Shown here in pieces: positions 1 to 14,321 of a stretch of DNA of 54,025 nucleotides. Source of the DNA: a virus. Lineage: Duplodnaviria > Caudoviricetes. The notes under the pieces were generated by a model, which saw only the letters and a program-made list of their open reading frames with translations, searched no databases and was not told the origin of the DNA. Both the position numbers and the translations under genes were made by a program. The stretch spans positions 1 through 54,025 of the IMG/VR virus record IMGVR_UViG_3300008448_000113, one strand, 5' to 3'. Positions within the stretch are counted from its first letter, which is position 1; each line of letters opens with the position of its first letter.

Positions 1-1785
1 CCCATCGGAGTCATAGGGTCATCGGGATCTACGGGTCCAACGGGTGCAACGGGACCACAAACAATCACTGGAACCGCGGGTGTGCAGGGAGTTAGTGGTG
101 TTGCGGGTACTGCTGCGACGGGTGTACAAGGACCAACCGGACCTGTAGGTTCTACCGGACCAACGGGACCGTTGGGATATTCGGGTTCCACGGGCGTACA
201 GGGTATTACAGGTGTTACAGGGTCTACTGGACCATTAGGTTCAACAGGTCCAACGGGTGCAACAGGTGCGATAGGTCCGAGTGGACGGCAAGGAATTCAA
301 GGTATTACCGGTGTGATTGGTGTAACCGGTCCTTCTGGAGATATCGGTCCAACTGGACCCATAGGAATAACCGGACCAACTGGAGTAGGCCCCGCTGGGT
401 CAACTGGCCCTGTGGGAGAATCGGGACCGATAGGATCACAAGGAATTAGAGGAGCAACTGGACCTACCGGTGCGGCAGGACCATCGGGAAGTACAGGACC
501 AAACACATTCGGTGGTGCGGGAATTTCTGGACCAACGGGTGCAACGGGTGTCATCGGTGTAACAGGTCCAACAGGTGCACAAGGACGAACGGTATATTAT
601 GTTACCGGTGTTTGTGCGGCGGTCCACGCAAATGCAACCACAACGCATACCGACACAACAGTATATCACAGTGATACGTCAACTCCACATGGTAATTCTG
701 TTGCACATTCCAACATAACCATCGCAGGGTCACACGCTAATATCGCTGCATCACACACAGATTCAACAGCACATACGAACGCAACTACTACACACGGTGA
801 TGGTACCACAACGCACACAAATAGTAGTATTGCGTTTACAAACACGACTGCTCATAGTAACATTTCACCATCGCATAGTGATATTATCACTCACACAAAT
901 ATTTCCACAATTCACGGAGATGGTACACCACATACTAATATTGCGGCATCACACGCAAATGAAGCTGCGGTTTCACATACAGATAGTGCAACGCATTATG
1001 ATGGTGCTACGGAATTTGTTAATATTACCACACACTTCGATGTAGACCCATCACACGTAGATGGAGTACCTCACACAAACGTAAGTCCATTTCATGCAGA
1101 TGAAGCACCATCACATTCAAATTACGCAGCATCGCATGCAAATATCGCAGGTAATCATACCGATACAACCAATTTACACATAGATTACTATCTTGGTATT
1201 GACCCTGTTACGCACGGTGATACTCCTGCTAGTCACGCAGATATCACATCACCACATACAAATTATGCAGTACCGCATTCCGATGGGACTTCAAATCATT
1301 CAGATATAACAGTACCGCATTCCGATATCACAACGCATGCAAACACATATAGTACTCATTATGATCAAATAGCACATCAAGATACTGTAGCAAGTCATGC
1401 AAACTTTGTTGATCATTCTGATATCGTTGCTATACCACATTCCAATGAAACAACAAACTTTACAAATAGTGTTGTGCATACGGATATTCCTGCAACACAT
1501 ACTAATATTGCATCGCATGATGATATTACCATAACTCACACGGATATTGTGACACATACTAATATTACAGCGACTCACACCAATATAACGCCGTCACATG
1601 CAAATATATCTCCGTCGCATGCAAATGCAACACCACATACAAATATCAATATATCGCATGACGATATTACTATTACTCCAAGTCATACTAATGCAACACC
1701 ACACACAAATATTACCACCGCACACTCAAATGTAGCAGCATCGCATTCAAATGTCGCGGCATCACATTCGAATTCTACCACGTAA
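1..1785 (+). CDS. Collagen-like fibre protein with C-terminal HxD/N repeat array (5'-partial)
   Basis: Frame is open from base 1 ([15 protein letters not shown]...), so the true start lies upstream of the window. Gly-X-Y (GPT/GST/GAT) repeats run to about 585. H-x-[DN] motifs then recur every 6-9 aa from 625 to 1773. Confidence 0.85.
625..1773 (+). repeat. Coding HxD/N repeat array 1
   Basis: Units such as [14 protein letters not shown] and HANISPS; roughly 55 units estimated from length and period. Confidence 0.9.
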
Positions 1786-1790
1786 TCATT

Positions 1791-2639
1791 ATGCCACGTT
1801 TTTTTCCGCTTGGTACACCAACTACCGCTAGTATAGCCAAAGCAGCATTATTTGCGTTTACTGCAAGTATTGCTTTAAACGCAAATGTACTCACTGCATC
1901 ATTTGCTTCGGGTTCTGTTGGTGTGATGGGAGTTGGAGGACCAACCGGTCCACGAGGACCAACAGGAATATCTGCTTCTGGGTCCACTGGACCGACCGGT
2001 GCAACTGGACCAACGGGACCGGCAGGTGTAGGACCAACGGGACCGTCCGGTGTGATAGGAATAACGGGTATTACAGGAACCACAGGACCAACAGGATCTA
2101 CGGGTCCAACCGGTGCAACGGGACCAACCGGACCAACTGGAATAGTCGGTATTACAGGACCAGTTGGTCCAACGGGTATTGGGTCATTAATATCGGGAAG
2201 TACTGGTGTACAAGGTTCTACGGGAGCAACAGGTCCAACAGGTACACGAGGTGCAACGGGAGTAACAGCGGGTGTCATTGGTATTACTGGTGCTAGTGGA
2301 TTGGCAAATATTATTGGTCCTACGGGACCGGTAGGAGCAACAGGACCTACTACCATCGGTGGAACAGGACCAACCGGACCACAAGGGTCTGCAGGACCAG
2401 TTGGACCAACGGGACCGAGTGCAGACGCACCATTAACAGGTTCGTTGGGTGTTGGAGGTATTACGGGAATTCAAGGACCAACCGGAGCACAAGGTATTCG
2501 TGGAGCAGACGCAGGATGTCCAGCAGGAACCGTAGTATGTACGGGGTTATCCCCATCCAATACATCATTGTATGGATTGGTATGTGCAACATTACCAACT
2601 GGATGTGGTGGTAGTTTTACATGCCCACCGACAATCTAA
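1791..2639 (+). CDS. Collagen-like protein with Cys-rich C-terminus
   Basis: Gly-X-Y (GPTG) repeats, a hydrophobic Ala-rich N-terminal segment, and 5 Cys in the last ~40 aa. Confidence 0.85.
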
Positions 2640-2679
2640 ACTACTTATATAAGATAAATTGATTACATCGGAGTGATAA

Positions 2680-5289
2680 ATGCCAAAAGCACCAGGCAGT
2701 GTATGGGTAAGTGGAACAGAATTTCATTTTGTCGATAATACGGGTGTAGAATACTACTATATCGGTACATCGGTAGGAACTCCTGCCGGTGCAGTGCCTG
2801 GTTCTATTTGGGTCGATAGTAGTGATTTTCATTATATCGATTCGTCGGGAACGGATAGATTAATTGCAAGTACCGACTTAGGAGCAGTATCAGGAGCACG
2901 ACCAGGATCAGTTTGGGTAGAAAGTACTTTTTGGAATTGGATATCATCGGGTACAAATAAAAGAAGAGGACACACTGATGTTGCTGCAAGTCATACCGAT
3001 TTAACAACTCCCGCCGCACATACAAATGCAACTACCGCATTTGTTAATTCTACTATACCCGCATCACATACCGATGGTACTACAGCTCACACCGATGCAA
3101 CTACCACGGCATCACATAGTGATGCCACTACAACACATACGGATTTAACTACCCCCGCATCGCATAGTGATGGTACAACCCCTCATAGTGACGGAACAAC
3201 CCCCGCATCGCACAGCGATGGTACCACACCACATAGTGATGCCACAACAACTGCGTCGCACAGTAATGCAACAACACCTCACAGTGACGGTACAACCCCT
3301 GCGTCACACAGTAATGCAACAACTGCACATAGTGACGGTACAACTCCTGCATCACACAGCAATGCAACAACTGCATTTGTTAATTCTACAATAACAGCAT
3401 CGCACAGTAATGCAACAACAGCATTTGTCAATTCCACCGTACCTGCATCACATAGTGACGGAACAACTCCACATAGTGATGCTACCACACCAGCATCGCA
3501 TAGCGATGGAACAACTCCGCATAGTAACGCCACAACAACTGCTTCACACAGTGATTTAACAACACCATTTGCTAATTCTACCACACCAGCGTCGCATAGT
3601 GACGCAACTACAACATTCGTTAATTCCACAATACCTGCATCACATAGTGACGGAACAACTCCACATAGTGATGCTACCACACCAGCATCGCATAGTGATG
3701 CGACGACATCACATAGTGATGCTACAACACCCGCGTCGCATACAAATTATGCAACGCATTCTAATATAAGTACTCCACATGCAAATGCCGCATCGTCGCA
3801 TAGTGATTTCGCATCACATTCAAACGTGGCAGCTTCACATGGAAACGTAACCGGACATGCAAATACAGCTGCATCACATACCAATTATGCAACACATGCC
3901 AATGCCCCATCGTCGCACGCTAATATTATAGCACACTCAAATCAAGCGGCAAGTCATACTAATTATGCTACACATGCAAATGAAGCACCTACACACACTA
4001 ATTATGCAATACACGCAAACACACCAGCCGATCATAGTAATACGTACACCCAACACGGAAATACTCCAGGAAGTCATTCCGATACAACTATTATTCACGT
4101 AGATTATTATTTTGGTTTTCCAGAAGAAGCTCACGGAGATGTTCCGGCCAGTCATGCAGACACTTCGATAACACACGACGATGGGCCAGCGTATCATAGT
4201 AATTATGCAGCACCTCATTCAAATTATGCATTACATGGTGATGATACAATCTTCCATTCGGATGATGCATCGCATGGTGACGATACAATCTTCCACACAA
4301 ATTATGCAACGCACGATGATTCTACAAATCCCCACACAAATTATGCAACGCATGGGGACGATACAATCTTCCACACAAATTATGCATCACACACAAACTC
4401 ATCTGATCCTCATGCAAATATCATAAATCATTCTGACGGAACTACACCACATGCAAATACTTCCCCGTCACATGGAAATCAAACACCGCATGGTGATGCA
4501 ACAACCAACCCAAGTCACACCAATATCAGTCCTTCGCATTCGGATGGAACAACACCGGCAAGTCACGCGAATATTGTAGCATCACACTCAGATATAACTA
4601 TAAATTCAAGCCATACAGATATTGCGGCATCACATGCAGACGCAACAACGAATCCAAGCCACACGGATGTTTTGGCATCACATACGGATGGAACAACACC
4701 AGCAAGTCATTCAAATATTAGTCCATCGCATGCAGACGCAACAACTAATCCGAGTCATGCAAATATTAGTCCATCGCACTCGGACGCAACAACGAATCCA
4801 AGCCATACTAACATTGTTGCATCGCACTCCGATGGAACAACACCGGCAAGTCATACAGATATTGCTGCGTCACATTCCAATGCAACAACGCCAGCAAGTC
4901 ATGCAAATATAGCATCTGCACACACCAACGCAACCACAAGTCCAAGTCATGCAAATATTACCCCGGCACACACCAACGCAACCACAAGTCCAAGTCACGC
5001 AGATATTGTCGCATCACATTCTGATGCGACAACACCGGCAAGTCACGCGGACATCGTTGCTTCGCACTCGGATGGAACAACCCCCGCAAGTCACACAGAT
5101 ATTGCCGCATCACACTCTGACGGAACAACACCGTCGAGTCACGCAAATATCGCAGCATCACATTCCGATATAACCATTAACCCAAGTCATACAGATATTG
5201 TTGCATCACACGCGGACGGAACAACCAATCCAAGTCACAGTGATGGAACTACGGTGCACAGTGACCAACCTGTACTTGTTGGGGCTTGA
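2680..5289 (+). CDS. Giant HxD/N repeat protein (putative fibre, putative radical SAM substrate)
   Basis: N-terminal ~95 aa contain three PGS[VI]WV repeats, followed by ~765 aa of H-x-[DN] repeats. Confidence 0.85.
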   Translation: MPKAPGSVWVSGTEFHFVDNTGVEYYYIGTSVGTPAGAVPGSIWVDSSDFHYIDSSGTDRLIASTDLGAVSGARPGSVWVESTFWNWISSGTNKRRGHTDVAASHTDLTTPAAHTNATTAFVNSTIPASHTDGTTAHTDATTTASHSDATTTHTDLTTPASHSDGTTPHSDGTTPASHSDGTTPHSDATTTASHSNATTPHSDGTTPASHSNATTAHSDGTTPASHSNATTAFVNSTITASHSNATTAFVNSTVPASHSDGTTPHSDATTPASHSDGTTPHSNATTTASHSDLTTPFANSTTPASHSDATTTFVNSTIPASHSDGTTPHSDATTPASHSDATTSHSDATTPASHTNYATHSNISTPHANAASSHSDFASHSNVAASHGNVTGHANTAASHTNYATHANAPSSHANIIAHSNQAASHTNYATHANEAPTHTNYAIHANTPADHSNTYTQHGNTPGSHSDTTIIHVDYYFGFPEEAHGDVPASHADTSITHDDGPAYHSNYAAPHSNYALHGDDTIFHSDDASHGDDTIFHTNYATHDDSTNPHTNYATHGDDTIFHTNYASHTNSSDPHANIINHSDGTTPHANTSPSHGNQTPHGDATTNPSHTNISPSHSDGTTPASHANIVASHSDITINSSHTDIAASHADATTNPSHTDVLASHTDGTTPASHSNISPSHADATTNPSHANISPSHSDATTNPSHTNIVASHSDGTTPASHTDIAASHSNATTPASHANIASAHTNATTSPSHANITPAHTNATTSPSHADIVASHSDATTPASHADIVASHSDGTTPASHTDIAASHSDGTTPSSHANIAASHSDITINPSHTDIVASHADGTTNPSHSDGTTVHSDQPVLVGA
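2971..5265 (+). repeat. Coding HxD/N repeat array 2
   Basis: HSDGTTP/HSDATTPAS-type units with 7/9 spacing in the outer arms and 6/7 spacing in the inner arms; roughly 100 units estimated. Confidence 0.9.
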
Positions 5290-5314
5290 CAAATAGTTAA
5301 CTTAGTAGTATATT
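5286..5314 (+). promoter_or_regulatory. Sigma70-like promoter upstream of the radical SAM gene
   Basis: TTGACA-N17-TATATT, followed by an AGAGG Shine-Dalgarno before ATG 5347. Confidence 0.8.
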
Positions 5315-5346
5315 AAAGTTTGATTCATTAAAAGAGGTTTTATTAT

Positions 5347-6648
5347 ATGACAATTGAGTTAGAACCAGTTGGAGTAGTATGTAATTTAAGTTGTCCATAT
5401 TGCTATGAACATCCGATGCGTGATGCTGGAAACTTTCGGCATAAAACGTATAGCGTCGAAAAGATGTTACAGGGATTGGAACGTGAGGGTGGTCACTTCA
5501 CATTATTTGGTGGTGAACCATTATTAACGGATATTGACGATTTAGAAACCATTTTTAAATGGGGATACGAACGTTACGGTGGTAACGGTATCCAAACAAA
5601 TGGTACGTTAATAACCGAACGTCATATTGAAATGTTTAAAAAATATAAAGTGCACGTGGGTATTTCCGTGGACGGACCAGATGATATGAATGATACTCGT
5701 TGGGCTGGTTCCTTGGAAAAGACACGGGAATCCACACAGAAGTCCATGCATGCTATCAAACGATTGCTGGATGAAAAAATGTCAATGGGTATTATTATTA
5801 CTGTCCATAAAAAGAATGGATTGCCCAAGTATAGAGAACGATTTAAAAATTGGATTCGGGAATTAAAATCTTGGGGAGCAGACGGCGCACGATTACATCC
5901 GTTGGAAGTTGATCATAGTGCTGTTGGTGAGACGTTGGCATTGTCGTCTGAACAAAATATAGAATTTTTGTTGGACATGTGGGAATTTGAAATTTCCGAA
6001 TTGAAGGGAACATTTACCTTTGATATTTTCCGTGACGTAGATTATATGATGCGTGCAGCGGATAATAGTGCAACGTGTACATTCTTGGCATGTGACCCAT
6101 ACACAACACACGCAGTACAGGGAATTGATTCACAAGGTAATCAATCAAATTGTGGTCGTGGTAATAAAGACGGTATCAATTGGATTAAAGCCCAATATGA
6201 CGGATTTGAACGACAAATGGCATTGTATCACACCCCAGAAGAACATGGTGGTTGCCAAGGATGTAGATTCTTTGTAATGTGTAAGGGGCATTGTCCGGGT
6301 ACTGGATTGGATATGGATTGGAGAAATAAACCAGATTCGTGTCTAAGTTGGAAAGTTTCATTTGGTATTTATGAAAAGTTGATGTTGAAACGAGGTGAAA
6401 CACCGTTATCATTACATCCAGACTTAAAGAAATACGAAGAGTTAATGTTACACGGATTCAGCCGTGGGGTTGAATTACGTTTGTCTCAAATCAAAAAACA
6501 TTTGGAAACGGGATATAATCTCGACGCATATATAGAAGCAACATTGGAAAACATGAGACGAGGATTTCCAAAACCACACGCCGACCACACAGATAATACA
6601 GGCAAATATAAACAAGAGTATTTTGAGAAGTACGGTATAGAACTTTAA
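5347..6648 (+). CDS. Radical SAM/SPASM-domain peptide maturase-like enzyme
   Basis: CNLSCPYC (CxxxCxxC), FGGEPL, QTNG and ISVDGP motifs. C-terminal Cys cluster CTFLAC...C...CQGCRFFVMCKGHCPG...C is SPASM-like. Confidence 0.9.
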   Translation: MTIELEPVGVVCNLSCPYCYEHPMRDAGNFRHKTYSVEKMLQGLEREGGHFTLFGGEPLLTDIDDLETIFKWGYERYGGNGIQTNGTLITERHIEMFKKYKVHVGISVDGPDDMNDTRWAGSLEKTRESTQKSMHAIKRLLDEKMSMGIIITVHKKNGLPKYRERFKNWIRELKSWGADGARLHPLEVDHSAVGETLALSSEQNIEFLLDMWEFEISELKGTFTFDIFRDVDYMMRAADNSATCTFLACDPYTTHAVQGIDSQGNQSNCGRGNKDGINWIKAQYDGFERQMALYHTPEEHGGCQGCRFFVMCKGHCPGTGLDMDWRNKPDSCLSWKVSFGIYEKLMLKRGETPLSLHPDLKKYEELMLHGFSRGVELRLSQIKKHLETGYNLDAYIEATLENMRRGFPKPHADHTDNTGKYKQEYFEKYGIEL

Positions 6649-6666
6649 AACATAAGAGGATATGTT

Positions 6667-7050
6667 ATGGAAAACGGAATATTACACGCAGACCACATTG
6701 ACGAAACTGGTGCATACGCACGACGATTTCAAGTTGTTAAGGAGTTGGTAGACAATGGAACATTGACACAAATTCCAGAAGAATTTCGTGTAGGTGCAAC
6801 CGCATTATCACAGCAGGAAGTAGTTCCTGTTACACAAGAAAATTCCAAATTTTCATTTTATGATGAGTTTGGTCAAAAGCACGCAGACCACGTAGATGAA
6901 ACGGGTGAGTATCGTAAAGCATGGGAATCCATGTTTGGTCCTATGAACGGGGATAATAATGTATCATCCGAAGATACTCCTGCAAATACCGAATGGAAAT
7001 CGTTCCTACAACAGTTAATTGCAGAAGAAAAAGCAAAACTCAATATTTAA
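6667..7050 (+). CDS. Small acidic protein with two HADHxDETGxY motifs
   Basis: AGAGG SD; the motif is shared with the radical SAM C-terminus. Confidence 0.75.
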   Translation: MENGILHADHIDETGAYARRFQVVKELVDNGTLTQIPEEFRVGATALSQQEVVPVTQENSKFSFYDEFGQKHADHVDETGEYRKAWESMFGPMNGDNNVSSEDTPANTEWKSFLQQLIAEEKAKLNI

Positions 7051-7066
7051 TTTTAACCCAAAGGTT

Positions 7067-8539
7067 ATGCAACGTTTAAATAGTGTATTACCAGATTGGA
7101 CACGAATACAGTGGACCAACATGGAAAATAAAATAAAGTATGGTCCAATTTTAAATTCCATAACACATGCGTGGAAACAAATTGAACGAATGTCTGTTGT
7201 ACACGATTTACGATCCTGTACATTAGATAGTATTAGTTCCACGGAACTTATAGCACTGACAGAAGAATACAAGAAATACGGTGTGTACATTGTTCCATTG
7301 GCAAAGGAAGGAATAACACACACATATTCTTCTACAACACAACCATATATTAACGGTAAACCCTATCGTTTGCGTGTGGTGTTTACAAAGTCGGAAGAAC
7401 TGGCACAAGAATTTTTCACGGTGTGGAATGCACCGGTGCTGGATAATTCCCGAATTGGTGAACTTCTTGGGTATCCAAAGTGTTGTACCGATTTTTATAA
7501 AAAGTATTGGGTTGATCAACGATTTGTAGATACTACGTGGGTAATGTCGGTTGATAAATTACCAATTGACGAAGAGGCACGAACCGTACATATTAAATCC
7601 GACACACCACCAGAATGTAATATTTTGTGGCGTTGGCAGGGTGTACGATTGGTTTCGCATTTACCATGTTCATTTGATTGTGAACATACGGTTGATATTG
7701 GTAGACGAAATGCAGAACTTGGACGTAAACTTGGATTCAATGCTGAAATGGATTTGGCATACGAGTTGTTGACTTGGCCTGTGGAATGGTCTGCGTTACA
7801 CGGTATTGCGGAAATTAAAACGCCAATCAACAAAGTATCCTCACGTACAGATATGACACCGTGGAAATACACAGTACAAAAACATAGTGATATGTATCCA
7901 GAAGATGGCGCATCGGGTACCATGTATCCGTACACAGAAAAGAAACTCAAGATTAAACCAATAACTACAACTAAGTCGTTTTTGAAATCACTTGAAGATA
8001 CATCTGTTTGGGAAGAAAACGGATTCCGTTACAAGGAAGCAATGGATCATTTTCACGAAGTGGTAGTTGAAGCAATTGGTAATATGAAGTATGTACCTTC
8101 GGGTAATGTCCTTGACCTTGGTTGTGGTAATGGTGTATTGTTAGGTCGTGTTGTTGGAGACAGAGCAGACTTAATTCCACATGGTGTTGAAATGGACCGT
8201 CAACGATGTATGTCGGCAGCAACCACTATCCATTGGGGATATTTCACGTTGGGTAATATATTCGACCTCAATACATGGAAGGAAGATTATTATAGTATGG
8301 TGCTGTTGATGCCAGGACGTTTGATGGAAACTGCAAAAGAAACGGCAGAGGCATTCAGAAAACAATTATACGATAAGACAGACTTACTACTTATTAATCT
8401 GACATGTGATTGGACTGTTAAGTATAAGACTATCGATAATATGATGGTGTTAACCGGTCTAGACAAAGATTGGGAACCGGCTGGTCCTGTTGTACATAGA
8501 AAGGATGATGTCGCTCAATTATTTAAGAGGAAAGTGTAA
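7067..8539 (+). CDS. Cys-motif (DUF483-like) domain fused to a class I SAM methyltransferase
   Basis: GELLGYPKCC and HLPCSFDC motifs; C-terminal VLDLGCGNG. Start refined to ATG 7067 after AAGG. Confidence 0.7.
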   Translation: MQRLNSVLPDWTRIQWTNMENKIKYGPILNSITHAWKQIERMSVVHDLRSCTLDSISSTELIALTEEYKKYGVYIVPLAKEGITHTYSSTTQPYINGKPYRLRVVFTKSEELAQEFFTVWNAPVLDNSRIGELLGYPKCCTDFYKKYWVDQRFVDTTWVMSVDKLPIDEEARTVHIKSDTPPECNILWRWQGVRLVSHLPCSFDCEHTVDIGRRNAELGRKLGFNAEMDLAYELLTWPVEWSALHGIAEIKTPINKVSSRTDMTPWKYTVQKHSDMYPEDGASGTMYPYTEKKLKIKPITTTKSFLKSLEDTSVWEENGFRYKEAMDHFHEVVVEAIGNMKYVPSGNVLDLGCGNGVLLGRVVGDRADLIPHGVEMDRQRCMSAATTIHWGYFTLGNIFDLNTWKEDYYSMVLLMPGRLMETAKETAEAFRKQLYDKTDLLLINLTCDWTVKYKTIDNMMVLTGLDKDWEPAGPVVHRKDDVAQLFKRKV

Positions 8540-8540
8540 T

Positions 8541-8759
8541 ATGAATGATATAATTCCTGTCCCACTAGCAGTAAAATTATTGATTGAGTCGCACAAAGAA
8601 AAAGTTGACCAATCATTAAAAAATCTCACCGACGCTAATTTGGAATTAATGCAAATGTTAAATTTGTTACCATCGGAAGGATGGAGATTAGACATAGATA
8701 ATTTCAGATACGTCCGTATACAGAGTACTTCTATTGATGAACCTACACCCGTCGAGTGA
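8541..8759 (+). CDS. Hypothetical protein
   Basis: Fills the gap between two genes; ATG follows an AGAGG SD. Confidence 0.6.
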   Translation: MNDIIPVPLAVKLLIESHKEKVDQSLKNLTDANLELMQMLNLLPSEGWRLDIDNFRYVRIQSTSIDEPTPVE

Positions 8760-10629
8760 ACGAGTAATCTTCACCTGGGGAAGATTTAAAGGACACTCCT
8801 TAGCACATGCTGCGAGGAGTGTTCCTTCGTATCTAGAATGGATGTCAGGTCAAGAAGGATTACCCGAAGCGTGGCGTATTGCTGCCGCAAAAACTTTATT
8901 GGGTGAGGATATCGATGATTTGGACTTACCAAGAACCAGTTCCCCTACCATATCTTATAAAAATTTACCAGATACAAAATCCGATACTGTCGAAGTCATT
9001 TTAGTTGATAAAAAGACGGCGGCTGTTATCATGCCATATAATAAAACTTTATTGGCAAAATTTAAATATGAAATTGATGGTCGTAAATGGAACAATGATG
9101 AAAAGCATTGGGAATTTCCAATTGTACATTTACCAAAGTTTTTTTCTGTATTTCCTGATGCAAAATGTAAACCTGACGTATTAAAGCGATTGGAAGAATT
9201 AAAAACTCGTCGTCAAGACTTGGATGAAATACGACAGCAAGAGGATACGGAATTTAAAATCAAGGGTATGAAGTTAGACTTATATCCCTATCAAAAGATT
9301 GGTGTACAATTTGTGGATAGAGCAGGAGGTCGTTGTCTTATTGCGGATGCACCTGGATTAGGTAAGACCGTACAAGCGATTGCATACGCACAACATCATA
9401 ATTTAAAAACTATTATTGTGTGTCCTTTGTCCGTGGTAATCAATTGGCAACGTGAAATTAAAAAGTTTACCGGAAAGGAGAGTACTATATGGGATTCAAA
9501 GGGGTATGACGGTAAACTCGGAAATCAATTTCATATTACACATTATGATGCTGTTTCTAAAAATAATCATTGGCTTCGTGACCAAAAGTTCGATTTACTT
9601 GTGTGTGACGAAGCAACCTATCTTAAGAACCGTCAAACAATTCGTGCAAAAAGTGTCTTGGGTTCATACAAAGAGCGAAGAAAATATCCAGGTATTAAAA
9701 CCAAGTATAGTATCTTTCTTACCGGAACTCCTGTCATGTCTCGTCCTATTGAGGCGTTTTCATTATTAAACTTTTTGGACAAAGAACGATTCAATAATTT
9801 TTATCATTTTGTAGAACGGTATGGTGGATGGAAAGGTGATGCTCCTCGTAACTTACAAGACCTCCACGATCGTACTAAAGATTTGGTCATACGTAGAAAG
9901 AAAAGTGAAGTATTAACCGAACTTCCATCAAAACAACGAAATGATTTGTACGTAGAATTATCAAAAGACGAAAACAAAGAATATCAAAAATTATTAAAAG
10001 AAGTATTTGGTAAATGGAAGTTGGAAGGAAGACCATCTGTCACCCATATGCCAAAACTACAAGCGTTTTTGATACAACAGAAAATGCCACGATTGATAGA
10101 AATGATTGATGAATTTCTAGATAACGATAGACCTATATTAATTTTTAGTTGTTATATTGCTCCCTTGAAGTATTTGTTAAATCATTATGGTGACAAAGCA
10201 GCAATATTAACGGGGGAAATGAATAGAAATGACCGTCAAGAAACTATCGATAAATTAACGAGTGGACAAGCCAAGGTAGGATTATTCAGTCTCCGTGCCG
10301 CGGGTATGGGTATCGATGGATTACAAAAAGTTATCGATACCGTTGTATTTATCGATATGGATTGGACACCAGCAAACCATGAACAGGCCGAGGACCGTAC
10401 ACACCGTATAGGACAAACCAATCAAGTGCAGGCGTACTATATGATGTGTCAGGATACGATAGACGAATATATGCGGGACATTCTACGGGAAAAACAACAA
10501 GTCGCTGACCTTATTGTTGACGGGGCTTTGGTCACCCCTGAAAGTAATAAATCGTTTTTTAAAGAATTTGTTCGTAGAATTAATAAGGTGTACGATGGTG
10601 GTTTTACCGAAGAAAATATCACAGACTGA
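8737..10629 (+). CDS. SNF2-family (SF2) helicase
   Basis: DAPGLGKT, DEAT, LTGTP and QAEDRTHRIGQ motifs; N-terminal FTWGRFKG...PSYLEW module. Confidence 0.9.
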   Translation: MNLHPSSERVIFTWGRFKGHSLAHAARSVPSYLEWMSGQEGLPEAWRIAAAKTLLGEDIDDLDLPRTSSPTISYKNLPDTKSDTVEVILVDKKTAAVIMPYNKTLLAKFKYEIDGRKWNNDEKHWEFPIVHLPKFFSVFPDAKCKPDVLKRLEELKTRRQDLDEIRQQEDTEFKIKGMKLDLYPYQKIGVQFVDRAGGRCLIADAPGLGKTVQAIAYAQHHNLKTIIVCPLSVVINWQREIKKFTGKESTIWDSKGYDGKLGNQFHITHYDAVSKNNHWLRDQKFDLLVCDEATYLKNRQTIRAKSVLGSYKERRKYPGIKTKYSIFLTGTPVMSRPIEAFSLLNFLDKERFNNFYHFVERYGGWKGDAPRNLQDLHDRTKDLVIRRKKSEVLTELPSKQRNDLYVELSKDENKEYQKLLKEVFGKWKLEGRPSVTHMPKLQAFLIQQKMPRLIEMIDEFLDNDRPILIFSCYIAPLKYLLNHYGDKAAILTGEMNRNDRQETIDKLTSGQAKVGLFSLRAAGMGIDGLQKVIDTVVFIDMDWTPANHEQAEDRTHRIGQTNQVQAYYMMCQDTIDEYMRDILREKQQVADLIVDGALVTPESNKSFFKEFVRRINKVYDGGFTEENITD

Positions 10630-10667
10630 TATTTATATAAAGTATTTACAATATAAGGAGTTATTTT

Positions 10668-11414
10668 ATGTCAAATGTTACATTCCCTACGGAAATTATC
10701 GATTTACCAAGTAAAGGGAAATTTTATCCAGTAGGGCATCCACTGGCGTCTGGGCAAGTTGAGTTAAAATATATGACCGCCAAGGAAGAAGATATTTTAA
10801 CTTCTACAAATCTTATTCAAAAGGGTGTTGTTTTGGATAAACTAATCGATAGTTTGATTGTTACCAAAGGTGTTACCCACGAAGATTTTCTAATTGGGGA
10901 TTTAAACGCAGTCATGGTTGCAGCACGTATTCTTGGATACGGTAAGGACTACGAGATGTCGATTACGTGTCCTAAGTGTAATACAGAACAAGATCATGTT
11001 GTAGACTTAACTGAGTTGGATACAAAGGAATTATCCGAAGATGCAAGTTTGTCATTCAAACTACCAGCGAGTGGTAGGACGGTCAAAATTCAACTAATGA
11101 CACGTAAGTTGGAAAAAAATATAGATAAAGAATTAACGGCTATTAAGAAGGTGGGATTACAAGTAGAACCAGAAGCATCCACTCGTCTTCGTTATATTAT
11201 TTCGGAAGTTGATGGTGTTTCTGATCAAAAAACTATTCGTGAAACGGTAGAAAATATGTTAGTACGTGATACCAAGGCACTTCGTGACTTCTATAAGTCT
11301 GTCACGCCGGATGTACAATTTGAATCTATTTTTACATGTTCAAATTGTTCACATACCGATAAATTGCCAATCGGTATCGGCATTAACTTTTTTTGGCCTG
11401 ACGCAAGAGTATAG
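10668..11414 (+). CDS. Baseplate hub / tail assembly chaperone (T4 gp26-like)
   Basis: LPSKGKFYP, MTAKEEDIL, two CxxC pairs, NFFWP ending; lies upstream of the tape measure gene. Confidence 0.7.
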   Translation: MSNVTFPTEIIDLPSKGKFYPVGHPLASGQVELKYMTAKEEDILTSTNLIQKGVVLDKLIDSLIVTKGVTHEDFLIGDLNAVMVAARILGYGKDYEMSITCPKCNTEQDHVVDLTELDTKELSEDASLSFKLPASGRTVKIQLMTRKLEKNIDKELTAIKKVGLQVEPEASTRLRYIISEVDGVSDQKTIRETVENMLVRDTKALRDFYKSVTPDVQFESIFTCSNCSHTDKLPIGIGINFFWPDARV

Positions 11415-11589
11415 GTTAGCGGTACATAAAGTCATTTTTTCTATGATATATTATGGAAAGGGTGGCTTTACATTCCAAGATTTATATAATATGCCCGTGT
11501 TCTTGCGCGGCTTCTATTTGAAGGAAATGAACGACGCAGTAGAAAACCATAATGCAGAGATAGAAAAAATTAAAAATAAAACTAGATGA
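11389..11589 (+). CDS. Tail chaperone extension (gp51-like), probably reached by +1 frameshift
   Basis: The +1 frame reads FFGLTQEYR...YNMPVFLR from the T7 run at 11388-11394; no SD-supported start. Confidence 0.6.
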   Translation, partial: FFGLTQEYRLAVHKVIFSMIYYGKGGFTFQDLYNMPVFLRGFYLKEMNDAVENHNAEIEKIKNKTR

Positions 11590-11597
11590 GATAATCA

Positions 11598-14321
11598 ATG
11601 GCGATAGATGATAATCTTGATTTTAGAGATCAAGTCAAAAAAGCAGAGTTTGAAAAACTAGCACAGAATTCCAGAAGTCTTGCCGCTAATCTATCAGCTG
11701 CCAGTAAAGAATCAAATAATTTTATACAACGGTTAATATTAAATAACAAAGCTATCTCTGCACAACAAAAATCTATCTCACAACAGTTAATCGCGGATAG
11801 AGCTCAATTAAGATTAAATACTGAACGGTCCCGTTTATTACAAGACGACAATAATAGATTAAAACGACTAATACAACAAAAAAAGGCAGAAGCTGAATTA
11901 ATAGCCACCACGGGAAGAGATTCTCGTGGACGATTTAGGGGTGCCGCTGACATCGATAGATTGTCTACCGAGGCCAACACATTAACGTCACAATACCAAG
12001 GTCAAGTTTTAACGCAACGATCGTTAATGGCAGAATCGGAAGGATTGGAACAAAGTATGAGTCAATCCGGTAAGGAATTAAAAGGTTTGAAGATGCAAGG
12101 CATCGCTATGGCTGCGCAAGAAATATCCAAGGTCATTAAACAGTTTGCCGATGCAATGGCACAATTGGTAAATCTTATATACAAAACACAACAAGATTTA
12201 ACAGTACAGATGGGTACTGCGACCGACGTATTGTTCGATGCGCAGATGAATGTTATACAATCGTACATGCCGTTTAGCGGTGGTCCAATACTTAATAGAG
12301 ATGAAATTGTAAATGCATTTTCGAGTTTTAAGAAAGAATTTGGAACAATATTATCGTCGGAAGAAGCAACACGTATTGCAGCGGAATCTAAAAGATTAGG
12401 TATTTCATCTGACACGTATGTAAAGGCTAGACGAGCATTCTTGGGAACTGGTAATGCAGAAACCGTTAGAATGCAAGCAATGGCAGAATTCCAGAAACAA
12501 GGATTATCTGCCGGCGCAGCATTACAATATGCGGCGGAAAATGCCGATTTATTAGCAATTGCCGGTGATAAATACGCAGATTCATTATTTAAAGCGGCAG
12601 CGGAATCCAAGAAGATTGGTGTTAATCTTCGTGATATAGAAAAATTTGCAAATAGTCTTGTTGGTGACTTTGAAGGATCATTAGAAAATTTCGCTGAATT
12701 AAGTGCCCTTGGTGTTGAGATGGACTTCAACAAATTGGCAGAAGCTGCGGCTACCGGTACACCGGAAGAAATGCAAGCGGTACTCAAAGAACAATTAAGT
12801 TTATCGGGTATTACTGGTGAAGAATTACAACGAAATCGACAACTTAGATTATCACTATCACAAACCACAGGTCTAGACGACGCAAGTATATTACGATTGG
12901 CGGGTGTTGTACAACAACCAACAGAACAAACGGTTGAAGAAAAACAAGTAACACTCCTATCCAGTATATCAGAAAACATAGCAAAACTAACTAGAATATT
13001 TGCTGTAGCGGCTGGTATAATTGGCGGTGGTCTTGCCGGATTTGCTGCTAGTGGAGGAAACCCATTTGGTGCGATAGTTGGTGCAATCACAGGTGGTTAT
13101 GCTGCTACGAAGTTTGCAACCGGTGGATTTGTACGTGGGGCAGGAACATCAACTAGTGATAGCATTCCTGCGATGTTATCTGATGGTGAATACGTATTAA
13201 ATGCTGGTGCGGTTAGAAGTTTGGGTGTTGATACATTGAATAGTTTAAATTCAATGAAACCAGACGGTATTTCTGACGATGACGATACCATGTATCTAAA
13301 ACGTGGTGGTCCGGTAAAGAAGAAACGGAAAGCAAAACTAGAAAAACCAACAGAACCACAACCTGAACAATTTACCTTACTTGGAAAAACCTACAATAGA
13401 ATCAATAAAGATATTCCAACGTGGGCGGAAAAGGCATTAATTTTATCAATTTCCGCTGCGGGACGAGTCGCATCAGCTTTTTCACAAGATCCAAAGGCCG
13501 ATATATTCAAACAAGCTGTATTGGACAGACGAACAAAACCATTCACAGAAAATGATTTTTCAGCTGAAATGTTGGACAGTTTGGCGATGTTATATGCTAC
13601 TCTACCAAAACCAAAAAATGCAATACGTGATTATAATAGTTACAAAAATGCAAAACAAATGCTTTCTGGCTTCGGTAATGTAGCAAAAAATATTAATGAG
13701 TGGGAACTGATAATAGGTAGAGCTAATATTAGTAAATCAAAGACCGGTGTAAAATTTTCCGACGTTTATGATTTTAATGATTATGAATCCTCTAAGTGGC
13801 TTTCGTCCAAGGGACGAAGTAAAGACGAAGGTATTCTTACCAAATGGGGACTCGACGTTGCGGGAAATAGAAAAATTGGGATATCAAATATAATGTCGTG
13901 GTTGGGTAGACGAGCATTACCTGGTGATGTGGGTGGGGTTCCCGTAGAAGTACAACTCAATAATGACCAATTAAAAGTTGCAAAAAGTCAATTGAAGTCT
14001 GTGGGATTACCGAAAAAACACGCAGGTGGACTTATCGGTGGTCAAGGTGAAGTACCTACCATGTTGGAGGCTGGTGAATTCGTAGTAAGCGCCAAAGCTA
14101 CACAAGCGTATGGAAGTGATATGTTAGGTAAAATAAATACTGGAGCATACGCACAGGAACAACCTGTTGTTAATAACAATGTAAAGGTTGACACTGGTCG
14201 ATTGGAAGCAAAAATGGACAATTTAGTTTCTGCAATACGATCCATGAAAGTTGAAATGAATGGTTATGAAGTTGGTCATGTCTCGTTTAATGAAGCACGT
14301 ACACCACTACGAGTAAGATAA
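11598..14321 (+). CDS. Tape measure protein
   Basis: Long Ala/Gln-rich helical protein with a Gly-rich hydrophobic segment and FATGG...SDSIPAMLSDGEYV motif; follows the chaperone pair. Confidence 0.75.
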   Translation: MAIDDNLDFRDQVKKAEFEKLAQNSRSLAANLSAASKESNNFIQRLILNNKAISAQQKSISQQLIADRAQLRLNTERSRLLQDDNNRLKRLIQQKKAEAELIATTGRDSRGRFRGAADIDRLSTEANTLTSQYQGQVLTQRSLMAESEGLEQSMSQSGKELKGLKMQGIAMAAQEISKVIKQFADAMAQLVNLIYKTQQDLTVQMGTATDVLFDAQMNVIQSYMPFSGGPILNRDEIVNAFSSFKKEFGTILSSEEATRIAAESKRLGISSDTYVKARRAFLGTGNAETVRMQAMAEFQKQGLSAGAALQYAAENADLLAIAGDKYADSLFKAAAESKKIGVNLRDIEKFANSLVGDFEGSLENFAELSALGVEMDFNKLAEAAATGTPEEMQAVLKEQLSLSGITGEELQRNRQLRLSLSQTTGLDDASILRLAGVVQQPTEQTVEEKQVTLLSSISENIAKLTRIFAVAAGIIGGGLAGFAASGGNPFGAIVGAITGGYAATKFATGGFVRGAGTSTSDSIPAMLSDGEYVLNAGAVRSLGVDTLNSLNSMKPDGISDDDDTMYLKRGGPVKKKRKAKLEKPTEPQPEQFTLLGKTYNRINKDIPTWAEKALILSISAAGRVASAFSQDPKADIFKQAVLDRRTKPFTENDFSAEMLDSLAMLYATLPKPKNAIRDYNSYKNAKQMLSGFGNVAKNINEWELIIGRANISKSKTGVKFSDVYDFNDYESSKWLSSKGRSKDEGILTKWGLDVAGNRKIGISNIMSWLGRRALPGDVGGVPVEVQLNNDQLKVAKSQLKSVGLPKKHAGGLIGGQGEVPTMLEAGEFVVSAKATQAYGSDMLGKINTGAYAQEQPVVNNNVKVDTGRLEAKMDNLVSAIRSMKVEMNGYEVGHVSFNEARTPLRVR

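Follow-up and report, generated by a model that had tools for sequence, protein, structure and literature searches.

The window, by which we mean the whole 54,025-base stretch analysed here, is a virus record (IMG/VR record IMGVR_UViG_3300008448_000113) with a CheckV completeness estimate of 29%. It belongs to a tailed phage, with genes for a helicase, a baseplate hub and a tape measure beyond the region treated below. That region (Table 1) holds a cassette of genes for a fibre protein with a long array of H-x-D/N triplets, a radical S-adenosylmethionine (SAM) enzyme of the SPASM type, a small protein, and a protein that joins a DUF483 domain to a methyltransferase. Our subject is the motif HADHxDxTGxY, which stands once on the C-terminal tail of the enzyme and twice in the small protein beside it. 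This feature is real, conserved, and undescribed in the literature searched, and its role can be narrowed by comparison with its relatives in phages and bacteria.

Table 1. Features of the cassette region, with positions in nucleotides of the window; aa, amino acids.
Feature	Position	Strand	Remarks
Fibre protein, 594 aa, 5' end cut by the window	1..1785	+	Collagen-like Gly-x-y region, then 53 H-x-D/N triplets; candidate substrate
Collagen-like protein, 282 aa	1791..2639	+	Pfam Collagen, 70.3 bits; without H-x-D array
Fibre protein, 869 aa	2680..5289	+	Three N-terminal PGS(V/I)WV repeats, then 97 H-x-D/N triplets
Radical SAM/SPASM enzyme, 433 aa	5347..6648	+	C-terminal tail at about residues 373-433, ending ...PHADHTDNTGKYKQEYFEKYGIEL
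Motif copy 1, HADHTDNTGKY	6577..6609	+	Enzyme residues 411-421, followed by a short helix (420-429)
Small protein, 127 aa	6667..7050	+	Motif plus helix twice, then a conserved amphipathic helix at the C-terminus (WKSFLQQLIAEEKAKLNI)
Motif copy 2, HADHIDETGAY	6685..6717	+	Small-protein residues 7-17
Motif copy 3, HADHVDETGEY	6880..6912	+	Small-protein residues 72-82; in a module alignable with 24 residues of the enzyme tail
DUF483 domain fused to a class I SAM methyltransferase	7067..8539	+	PF04467, 28.2 bits (cut-off 25)

The original prediction, made from the letters of the window, placed the motif at these three sites and described it as a compressed form of the fibre motif. The sequence, the open reading frames (ORFs) and the DNA of the record bear out the sites, and the description is apt as well: the fibre histidines lie nearly all in H-x-[DN] (97 of the 99 in the 869-aa protein and 53 of the 53 in the 594-aa protein, with His-to-His spacings of 6, 7 or 9), and the tandem H-x-D-H-x-D is a doubled version of that triplet. 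Over all six frames of the 54 kb the pattern H.DH.D has three matches only, and the looser H.[DN]H.[DN] has the same three; 200 mononucleotide shuffles of the window gave a mean of 0.06 and a maximum of 1. All four histidines of the small protein lie inside its two motifs.

For the comparison, 80 viral and 80 cellular loci were collected with an alignment of their enzymes; counts that concern the cassette as a whole are over 166 loci. Absence of the motif from homologues had been named as the result that would tell against the prediction. The search among enzyme homologues and their neighbours, run as had been proposed, gave clearly the opposite: the motif is widespread in both families, conserved in that of the enzyme and invariant in that of the small protein. 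A tandem H-x-[DNE]-H-x-[DNE] is present in 70 of the 120 best enzyme homologues, always past the catalytic core. The tail reads PHADHTDxTGxY in the clade of the window and HGDH(T/W/Y)D elsewhere, often after further HGD units; the tails beyond the window's clade are low-complexity HGD repeats, variable in length and copy number and without a fixed helix. Dereplication at 80% identity left 116 complete enzyme clusters. Among the 51 viral clusters, 42 are tailed (35 with the tandem motif and 7 with two or more single triplets) and 9 are tail-less; the 65 cellular clusters divide into 11 with a tail, 18 fusions or long forms and 36 without. On a tree of 115 enzyme cores (FastTree, local supports only) the tail label changes 8 times against a shuffled mean of 38.1, and none of 500 shuffles was as low. 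The tail-less viral clusters fall mostly (8 of 9) in two groups, of five and three, which suggests that the tail is old and rarely lost, and it persists across enzyme clades that are only 45-55% identical. At each of the invariant residues (H, A, D, H, D, G and Y), codons vary synonymously among eight distinct loci. The motif is thus a conserved sequence module under purifying selection, the outcome neither of chance nor of drift. As part of the enzyme it is accessory and not essential: two viral subclades lost the tail and retained their arrays and partner.

The small gene begins 18 nucleotides (nt) 3' of the enzyme gene, and in all 17 rows that have it, the window included, it separates the enzyme gene from that of the DUF483-methyltransferase and follows the enzyme stop by 18-30 nt. 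Its product matches no family in Pfam, NCBIfam or PHROGs and nothing in the phage collection (tblastn). The ESM Atlas model has a predicted local distance difference test (pLDDT) value of 0.40, with structural matches all below a template modelling (TM) score of 0.5, and an ESM Atlas feature search gave no usable match. The family is narrow: a profile search of 1.84 billion representatives returned only 12 clusters. Both motifs are invariant in 73 of the 74 relatives, the remaining one being truncated, and the invariance extends beyond His and Asp to Ala, Gly and Tyr, with an amphipathic helix. Distant relatives retain H[GA]DHxDxTGxY and the C-terminal helix; genomic loci for these (P0199-P0203) were found neither in viral nor in metagenome contigs. 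The second module of the small protein shares 10 of 24 residues with the enzyme tail (BLASTP, E 9e-7). When a hidden Markov model (HMM) of the small protein was run against the 13,313 ORFs of all loci, it recovered the 17 small proteins and, apart from them, only radical SAM tails (17 rows, E 1.8e-6 to 3.3e-4). Since the small-protein profile recovers the tails, we regard tail and module as homologous; since it matches nothing else outside its own family, the small protein is best seen as a detached and doubled tail module with a helix of its own. A complex prediction for enzyme residues 1-400 with the small protein, run without controls, scored 0.00, 0.34 and 0.00, values that count neither for nor against a contact.

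The enzyme itself is assigned to the radical SAM superfamily on its CxxxCxxC at C12, C16 and C19, invariant in 91 sequences, and on its Radical_SAM domain (PF04055, 61 bits, cut-off 29.5). Eight further invariant cysteines (C244, C249, C269, C303, C306, C312, C316 and C332), together with fold matches to anSME, ChlB and CteB, place a Cys-rich domain of the SPASM/twitch type at its C-terminal side. The protein starts 11 residues ahead of the first cluster Cys and so has no N-terminal leader-binding domain of the kind known as the RiPP recognition element (RiPP, a peptide made on the ribosome and modified after translation); the fibres, for their part, have a conserved N-terminal module. The solved folds closest to the AlphaFold2 model (pLDDT 87.9) are those of anSME (4k37, E 3.6e-14) and of the triceptide synthase ChlB (9gm3, E 1.6e-12). 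Tail residues 401-433, with their helix, are modelled at pLDDT 73-80, a score unlike that of a free coil, and as modelled the tail would not count as disordered. The best full-length match in NCBIfam is anSME (TIGR03942, residues 6-346), at 80.2 bits with a cut-off of 349.45, and the enzyme falls far below the cut-off of every curated model, the top ones being anSME, DynA and the cyclophane synthases AmcB (67.6 bits, cut-off 425), YhhB (66.1, 445), GrrM/OscB (53.2, 310), FxsB (46.5, 370) and XyeB (42.3, 450).

For the DUF483-methyltransferase the longest ORF starts at TTG 7019, with a 32-nt overlap with the small gene, and has an ATG in frame at 7067. The latter is probably the true start, in view of the N-termini of the homologues (M-x-R-L-x-F-x-L-P-x-F-T-R) and of the 17-19-nt spacing in sister loci. 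In the model of the 506-aa form (pLDDT 94.3) the methyltransferase fold covers residues 326-506, and the structural matches (Foldseek PDB, VIA-align wide) are methyltransferases only, over those same residues. Across 60 partners the DUF483 domain (window 7067-8030) has C156 and C221 invariant and C155, H214 and C217 conserved in at least 90%; from the residues involved, this stretch (GYPxCC ... HLPCSFxC) looks like a metal or cluster site.

The 869-aa fibre protein is the main candidate substrate of the enzyme. Its N-terminal module is found in 67 of the 166 loci and is common to protein Cumys_13 of a Thermus phage. It ends in ...HSDQPVLVGA (window 5230-5289), and a C-terminal piece of the form H-x-D-Q-P-(V/E)-x-V-(G/K) is common to the array fibres of very different phages: besides that of the window there are HADQPVRG (L001:5961-6992), HSDQPEFVGNV (L020:3959-4558), HNDQPVFVKNV (L036:1626-2978) and HVDQPVYVGP (L041:6196-7986), the last of these on an array of the Phe type. 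Upstream of the main array fibre lie two collagen-like proteins (1-2639), the first of which joins a collagen region (Pfam Collagen, 67.7 bits) to an H-x-D/N array.

An array ORF of H/F/Y/W-x-D/N triplets is present in 46 of the 51 viral enzyme clusters and a DUF483 homologue in 160 of the 166 loci. The aromatic-x-Asp/Asn array fibre, the radical SAM/SPASM enzyme and the DUF483 partner form a conserved cassette, widespread in phages and present in some bacteria. A preprint noted a three-gene 'rSAM module' in Thermus phages and suggested a function in DNA modification (bioRxiv 10.1101/2024.08.14.607894); neither 'histidine' nor 'RiPP' occurs in its main text, which is the part available to us. 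The window is a member of this group, with all three genes together in a late or fibre region: that of an H-x-D array protein, whose N-terminal module is shared, that of the radical SAM enzyme and that of the DUF483 protein. At the nucleotide level, the stretch 5347-8539 has no blastn match in the phage collection. Core identity to the enzymes of Thermus phages phiLo, Cumys and phiMa is 48-51%; these enzymes have a DUF483 gene as neighbour and end in tails of the HGD...HGDHWD type, and that of Cumys comes directly after Cumys_13, which has PGSVW N-terminal repeats and a dense H-x-D array. Unlike the window, the radical SAM loci of these three phages hold no small motif protein. Bryobacterales, among other bacteria, have enzyme and DUF483 joined in a single protein, preceded by 63-140-aa peptides with PH-x-D repeats, and in one locus (L124) an ORF after the fusion gene scores as an aKG-HExxH peptide hydroxylase (TIGR04267, 76.5 bits, cut-off 40). 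These fusion proteins have 0 to 2 H-x-D past the core and no tandem motif.

Two related phage loci have Phe in place of His in their arrays, built of TPF(D/S/A)N units in L022:2908-3945 and of TPFAQ or GFVNT units in L041:6196-7986, with Asn, Asp, Gln or Ser at the third position of the triplet. Both retain the N-terminal module and the last H-x-D-Q-P unit, and to judge by their residues they look like a natural exchange of the aromatic side chain. His-C2 to C-beta cyclophanes have been established on the motifs HAA, HNR and HTK, and HtkB accepts Phe or Trp in place of His, according to the portion of that study accessible to us (PMC11499958). An aromatic residue two positions before the attacked side chain is the signature of triceptides, which makes a cross-link within each triplet the most likely reaction, and by this analogy the enzyme probably makes triceptide-like His-to-Asp cross-links. 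In each fibre triplet it would abstract a hydrogen from the Asp/Asn side chain, which would then be joined to the aromatic ring two residues upstream, so that a triceptide-type cyclophane of three residues results.

The motif may be tied to this chemistry. In a sister phage (L036) the array itself is built from a tandem PHSDHTDG-type repeat unit, with 20 tandem sites, and near cellular enzymes the tandem unit recurs in a peptide of 55 aa and in proteins that seem to have signal peptides. An H-x-D-rich ORF accompanies 11 of the 11 tail-bearing cellular clusters against 8 of the 36 tail-less ones, and 32 of the 42 tail-bearing viral enzymes start at most 100 nt from the end of an array ORF. As possible roles the original prediction had offered a substrate mimic, self-modified or autoinhibitory, a peptide of the precursor type, and a tag for metal binding or for docking. 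The L036 array and the short precursor-like or exported proteins near cellular homologues lend support to the substrate-like option; they narrow the list and leave the others standing. With the tandem unit repeated in array proteins and in precursor-like peptides of the cassette, one shared role is the simplest reading.

We therefore favour, at a probability of roughly one half, an accessory unit of the substrate type that the enzyme meets in cis on its tail and in trans through the small protein, and that is either cross-linked or serves as a placeholder. The tandem H-(A/G)-D-H-x-D would be a substrate-type unit of triplet cross-linking. On the tail it would reach the peptide groove of its own enzyme in cis, to be cross-linked there or to act as a pseudo-substrate until the fibre arrays displace it, and the small protein would offer the same unit in trans. 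The overall layout would be that of a fused-plus-split enzyme and substrate, as in borosins and burpitides. A bolder version, which we put forward tentatively and hold to be possible rather than probable, sees the enzyme as a self-substrate radical SAM protein that cross-links the tandem unit on its own tail and on the two-copy mini-protein, which would enable it to work on apparently leaderless virion proteins; the built-in unit would then either occupy the substrate groove, as primer or placeholder, or tether the enzyme to the array.

Several observations weigh against a substrate-type role. Neither array fibre of the window contains a tandem H-x-D pair, and tandems are more frequent per motif in tails (0.28) than in arrays (0.09). 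At the second triplet position Gly accounts for 137 of the 221 motifs in tails and for 311 of the 1842 in arrays, and its fraction is higher in the tail in 43 of 49 clusters. The array of L041 is of the form Phe-x-Gln/Asn/Ser, with 45 F/Y/W triplets against 2 with His, yet the tail of its enzyme retains HLDHSD. The tail thus keeps His beside a Phe-type array and does not track it; that it simply copies the motif of its array is ruled out by L041 and by the bias at the second position. The objection that L041 raises is weakened by the tolerance of HtkB for His, Phe or Trp, as reported in the accessible portion of PMC11499958. Nine of the 51 viral clusters have neither a tail nor a separate motif ORF, and in the tail-less viral loci checked no compensating motif ORF was found, tandems being confined to array proteins or cut contig ends. 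Finally, in a Pirellulales locus (L105) the 926-aa DUF483-methyltransferase protein also ends in tandem H-x-D units, an arrangement as compatible with a tag of the complex as with a radical SAM substrate.

Histidine-rich tails are known from metallochaperones and HxH iron sites from fibres of the T4 type, and the unit might likewise be a metal-binding tag, in which the tandem His/Asp chelates a metal such as Fe, Zn or Ni and never is a substrate; it could serve the iron-sulfur clusters of the enzyme or hand metal to the His/Asp-rich fibres. The near-constant Asp at the third position (217 of the 221 tail motifs), the His kept on the tail opposite the Phe array of L041, the small residue (Gly/Ala) at the second position and a tandem spacing constrained past the needs of the array all suit a chelator, as does the presence of the tail on either enzyme of the pair (L105). 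We nevertheless consider it unlikely. The tandem unit occurs up to 20 times in array proteins and again in precursor-like peptides, the Phe arrays of L022 and L041 imply a cassette chemistry independent of metal-ligand side chains, and TGxY and the following helix are conserved, which a bare chelator does not need.

Docking would explain those very residues, since Ala, Gly, Tyr and the amphipathic helix are invariant and not just His and Asp. Here the module would bind not the active site but a partner, either the DUF483-methyltransferase or, by mimicry of a repeat unit, the fibre array, nascent or assembled. The enzyme would in this way be held on its apparently leaderless substrate, and a role as adaptor or chaperone would fall to the small protein, built from the same module. 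The middling rather than low AlphaFold2 confidence of the tail, the lack of a leader-binding domain in an enzyme whose CxxxCxxC starts at residue 12, the occurrence of tails mainly on viral enzymes that face large arrays, and the C-terminal helix that distant small proteins retain are all in keeping with this. Tail-less viral enzymes, however, have the same partner and the same kind of array, the radical SAM-DUF483 fusions do without the motif, and the variable low-complexity HGD tails outside the window's clade are unusual for a specific epitope, so that we also judge a pure tether improbable. Least of all do we expect a neutral by-product, array repeat units without any role that recombination or slippage left at the 3' end of the adjacent enzyme gene, for although the enzyme gene usually abuts the array gene and the tails vary in length and copy number, such an origin is disfavoured by the conservation data (invariant residues despite synonymous codon change, and persistence over clades 45-55% identical), by a tail composition unlike that of adjacent arrays and by a separate small-protein family built around the motif.

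Among the closest known systems are the triceptide synthases (HaaB, YhhB, HtkB, ChlB, XyeB and GrrM/OscB), whose product is a cross-link from an aromatic carbon to C-beta, at minus 2 Da per motif. They share with the enzyme the radical SAM/SPASM fold, with ChlB among the best structural matches, and substrates of repeated aromatic-x-X3 motifs, such as the arrays of the window provide; the interchange of His and Phe is seen both in HtkB assays, as far as the accessible portion of that study goes, and in the natural arrays described here, and we count the aKG-HExxH hydroxylase that accompanies the enzyme in bacterial loci as a further triceptide-like feature. Unlike them, the enzyme does not belong to a curated family model (42-68 bits against cut-offs of 310-450), acts by our proposal on virion fibres with up to ~100 triplets and no apparent leader, and has an obligate DUF483 partner, Asp/Asn at the third position and the motif on its own tail.

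With the borosins (fused OphMA-type and split) and the plant burpitide cyclases the system shares a core peptide C-terminal on the enzyme polypeptide and the existence of split variants, as the available parts of those studies describe them (PMC7878506, bioRxiv 10.1101/2021.12.24.474128, PMC10107690). To judge by its sequence the enzyme has the fused layout, with a core-like motif on its tail and the same unit in array proteins and in peptides that resemble precursors. The enzymes of those systems belong to unrelated classes (an N-methyltransferase and the copper BURP domain), and there the fused peptide is the product, whereas here the main substrates are separate fibres and self-modification of the tail is putative.

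A His-x-small-residue repeat protein, rather than a short peptide, matured by radical SAM enzymes and a small partner is also the core of the HXS anti-phage system (HxsA-D), where modification was mapped to a His-containing motif, with +8 Da together with N-terminal processing (PMC13128918). In the accessible part of that work HXS differs by an H-x-S repeat in five copies, two radical SAM enzymes with HxsD and the absence of DUF483; it is a bacterial defence effector and not a virion protein, and no enzyme-borne motif is described there. The window, with H-x-D/N repeats, one radical SAM enzyme and a DUF483 partner, is not an HXS system, and no Hxs model is among the best 25 of 57 NCBIfam matches. 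The enzyme anSME provides the best full-length NCBIfam match and solved fold and acts on leaderless proteins; the score of 80.2 bits against 349.45 excludes membership, and among the ORFs of window 1-14000 no sulfatase gene or C/S-x-P-x-R context was seen. An Asp-to-aminomalonate cascade was set aside, as it employs other enzyme types in the part of the report at hand (PMC12186529).

In the literature searched, which left subscription-only papers and preprint supplements outside, we found no paper on H-x-D fibre arrays as radical SAM substrates or on the enzyme tail, and no biochemical description of the cassette of array fibre, radical SAM enzyme and DUF483 protein. Papers on radical SAM genes of cyanophages and pelagiphages held passing mentions only, and a 'DUF483' match in a paper on amphioxus was in fact to DUF4832, through the shared beginning of the word. 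The greatest value of the motif lies in the experimental handle that it gives on a candidate protein-modification system of phage particles: as it is borne by the enzyme itself, on a defined peptide, the chemistry of the cassette is cheap to test, and the use of the enzyme or of its 127-aa partner avoids the 869-aa repeat fibre. Should the tail prove to be modified or regulatory, it would show a peptide-type maturase adapted to large structural proteins and extend the principle of fused and split enzyme and substrate from borosins and burpitides to radical SAM enzymes. In the bolder, self-substrate version this would be the first such layout among radical SAM enzymes, and would belong to the first case of RiPP-like maturation in a virus particle. 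If the tail binds metal or docks a partner, it still marks the viral branch of the family and points to the organisation of the complex.

The bacterial loci add some observations of their own. Compact RiPP-like clusters, at about positions 7500-10900 of each locus, were seen in metagenome-assembled genomes (MAGs) labelled Bryobacterales, Bryobacteraceae and Acidobacteriaceae (L117, L124, L098 and L119), in the order of one or two PH-x-D peptides and the radical SAM-DUF483 fusion, then, in three of the four (L124, L098 and L119), a HExxH ORF; such peptide clusters could be a simpler test system for the chemistry of the fibre arrays. NCBIfam has no match for five array or precursor-like proteins or for a 128-aa ORF of L041. 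The Pirellulales MAG of L105 (region of L105:5981-6364, 10936-13716 and 13849-14250) encodes proteins of 127 and 133 aa with apparent signal peptides of the twin-arginine type and H-x-D-rich ends. A viral locus, L076:8001-13545, has a run of two radical SAM and two DUF483 genes, after which comes an array of the Asn type (HSN, HNN), and neither of the enzymes listed for it shows an H-x-D tail.

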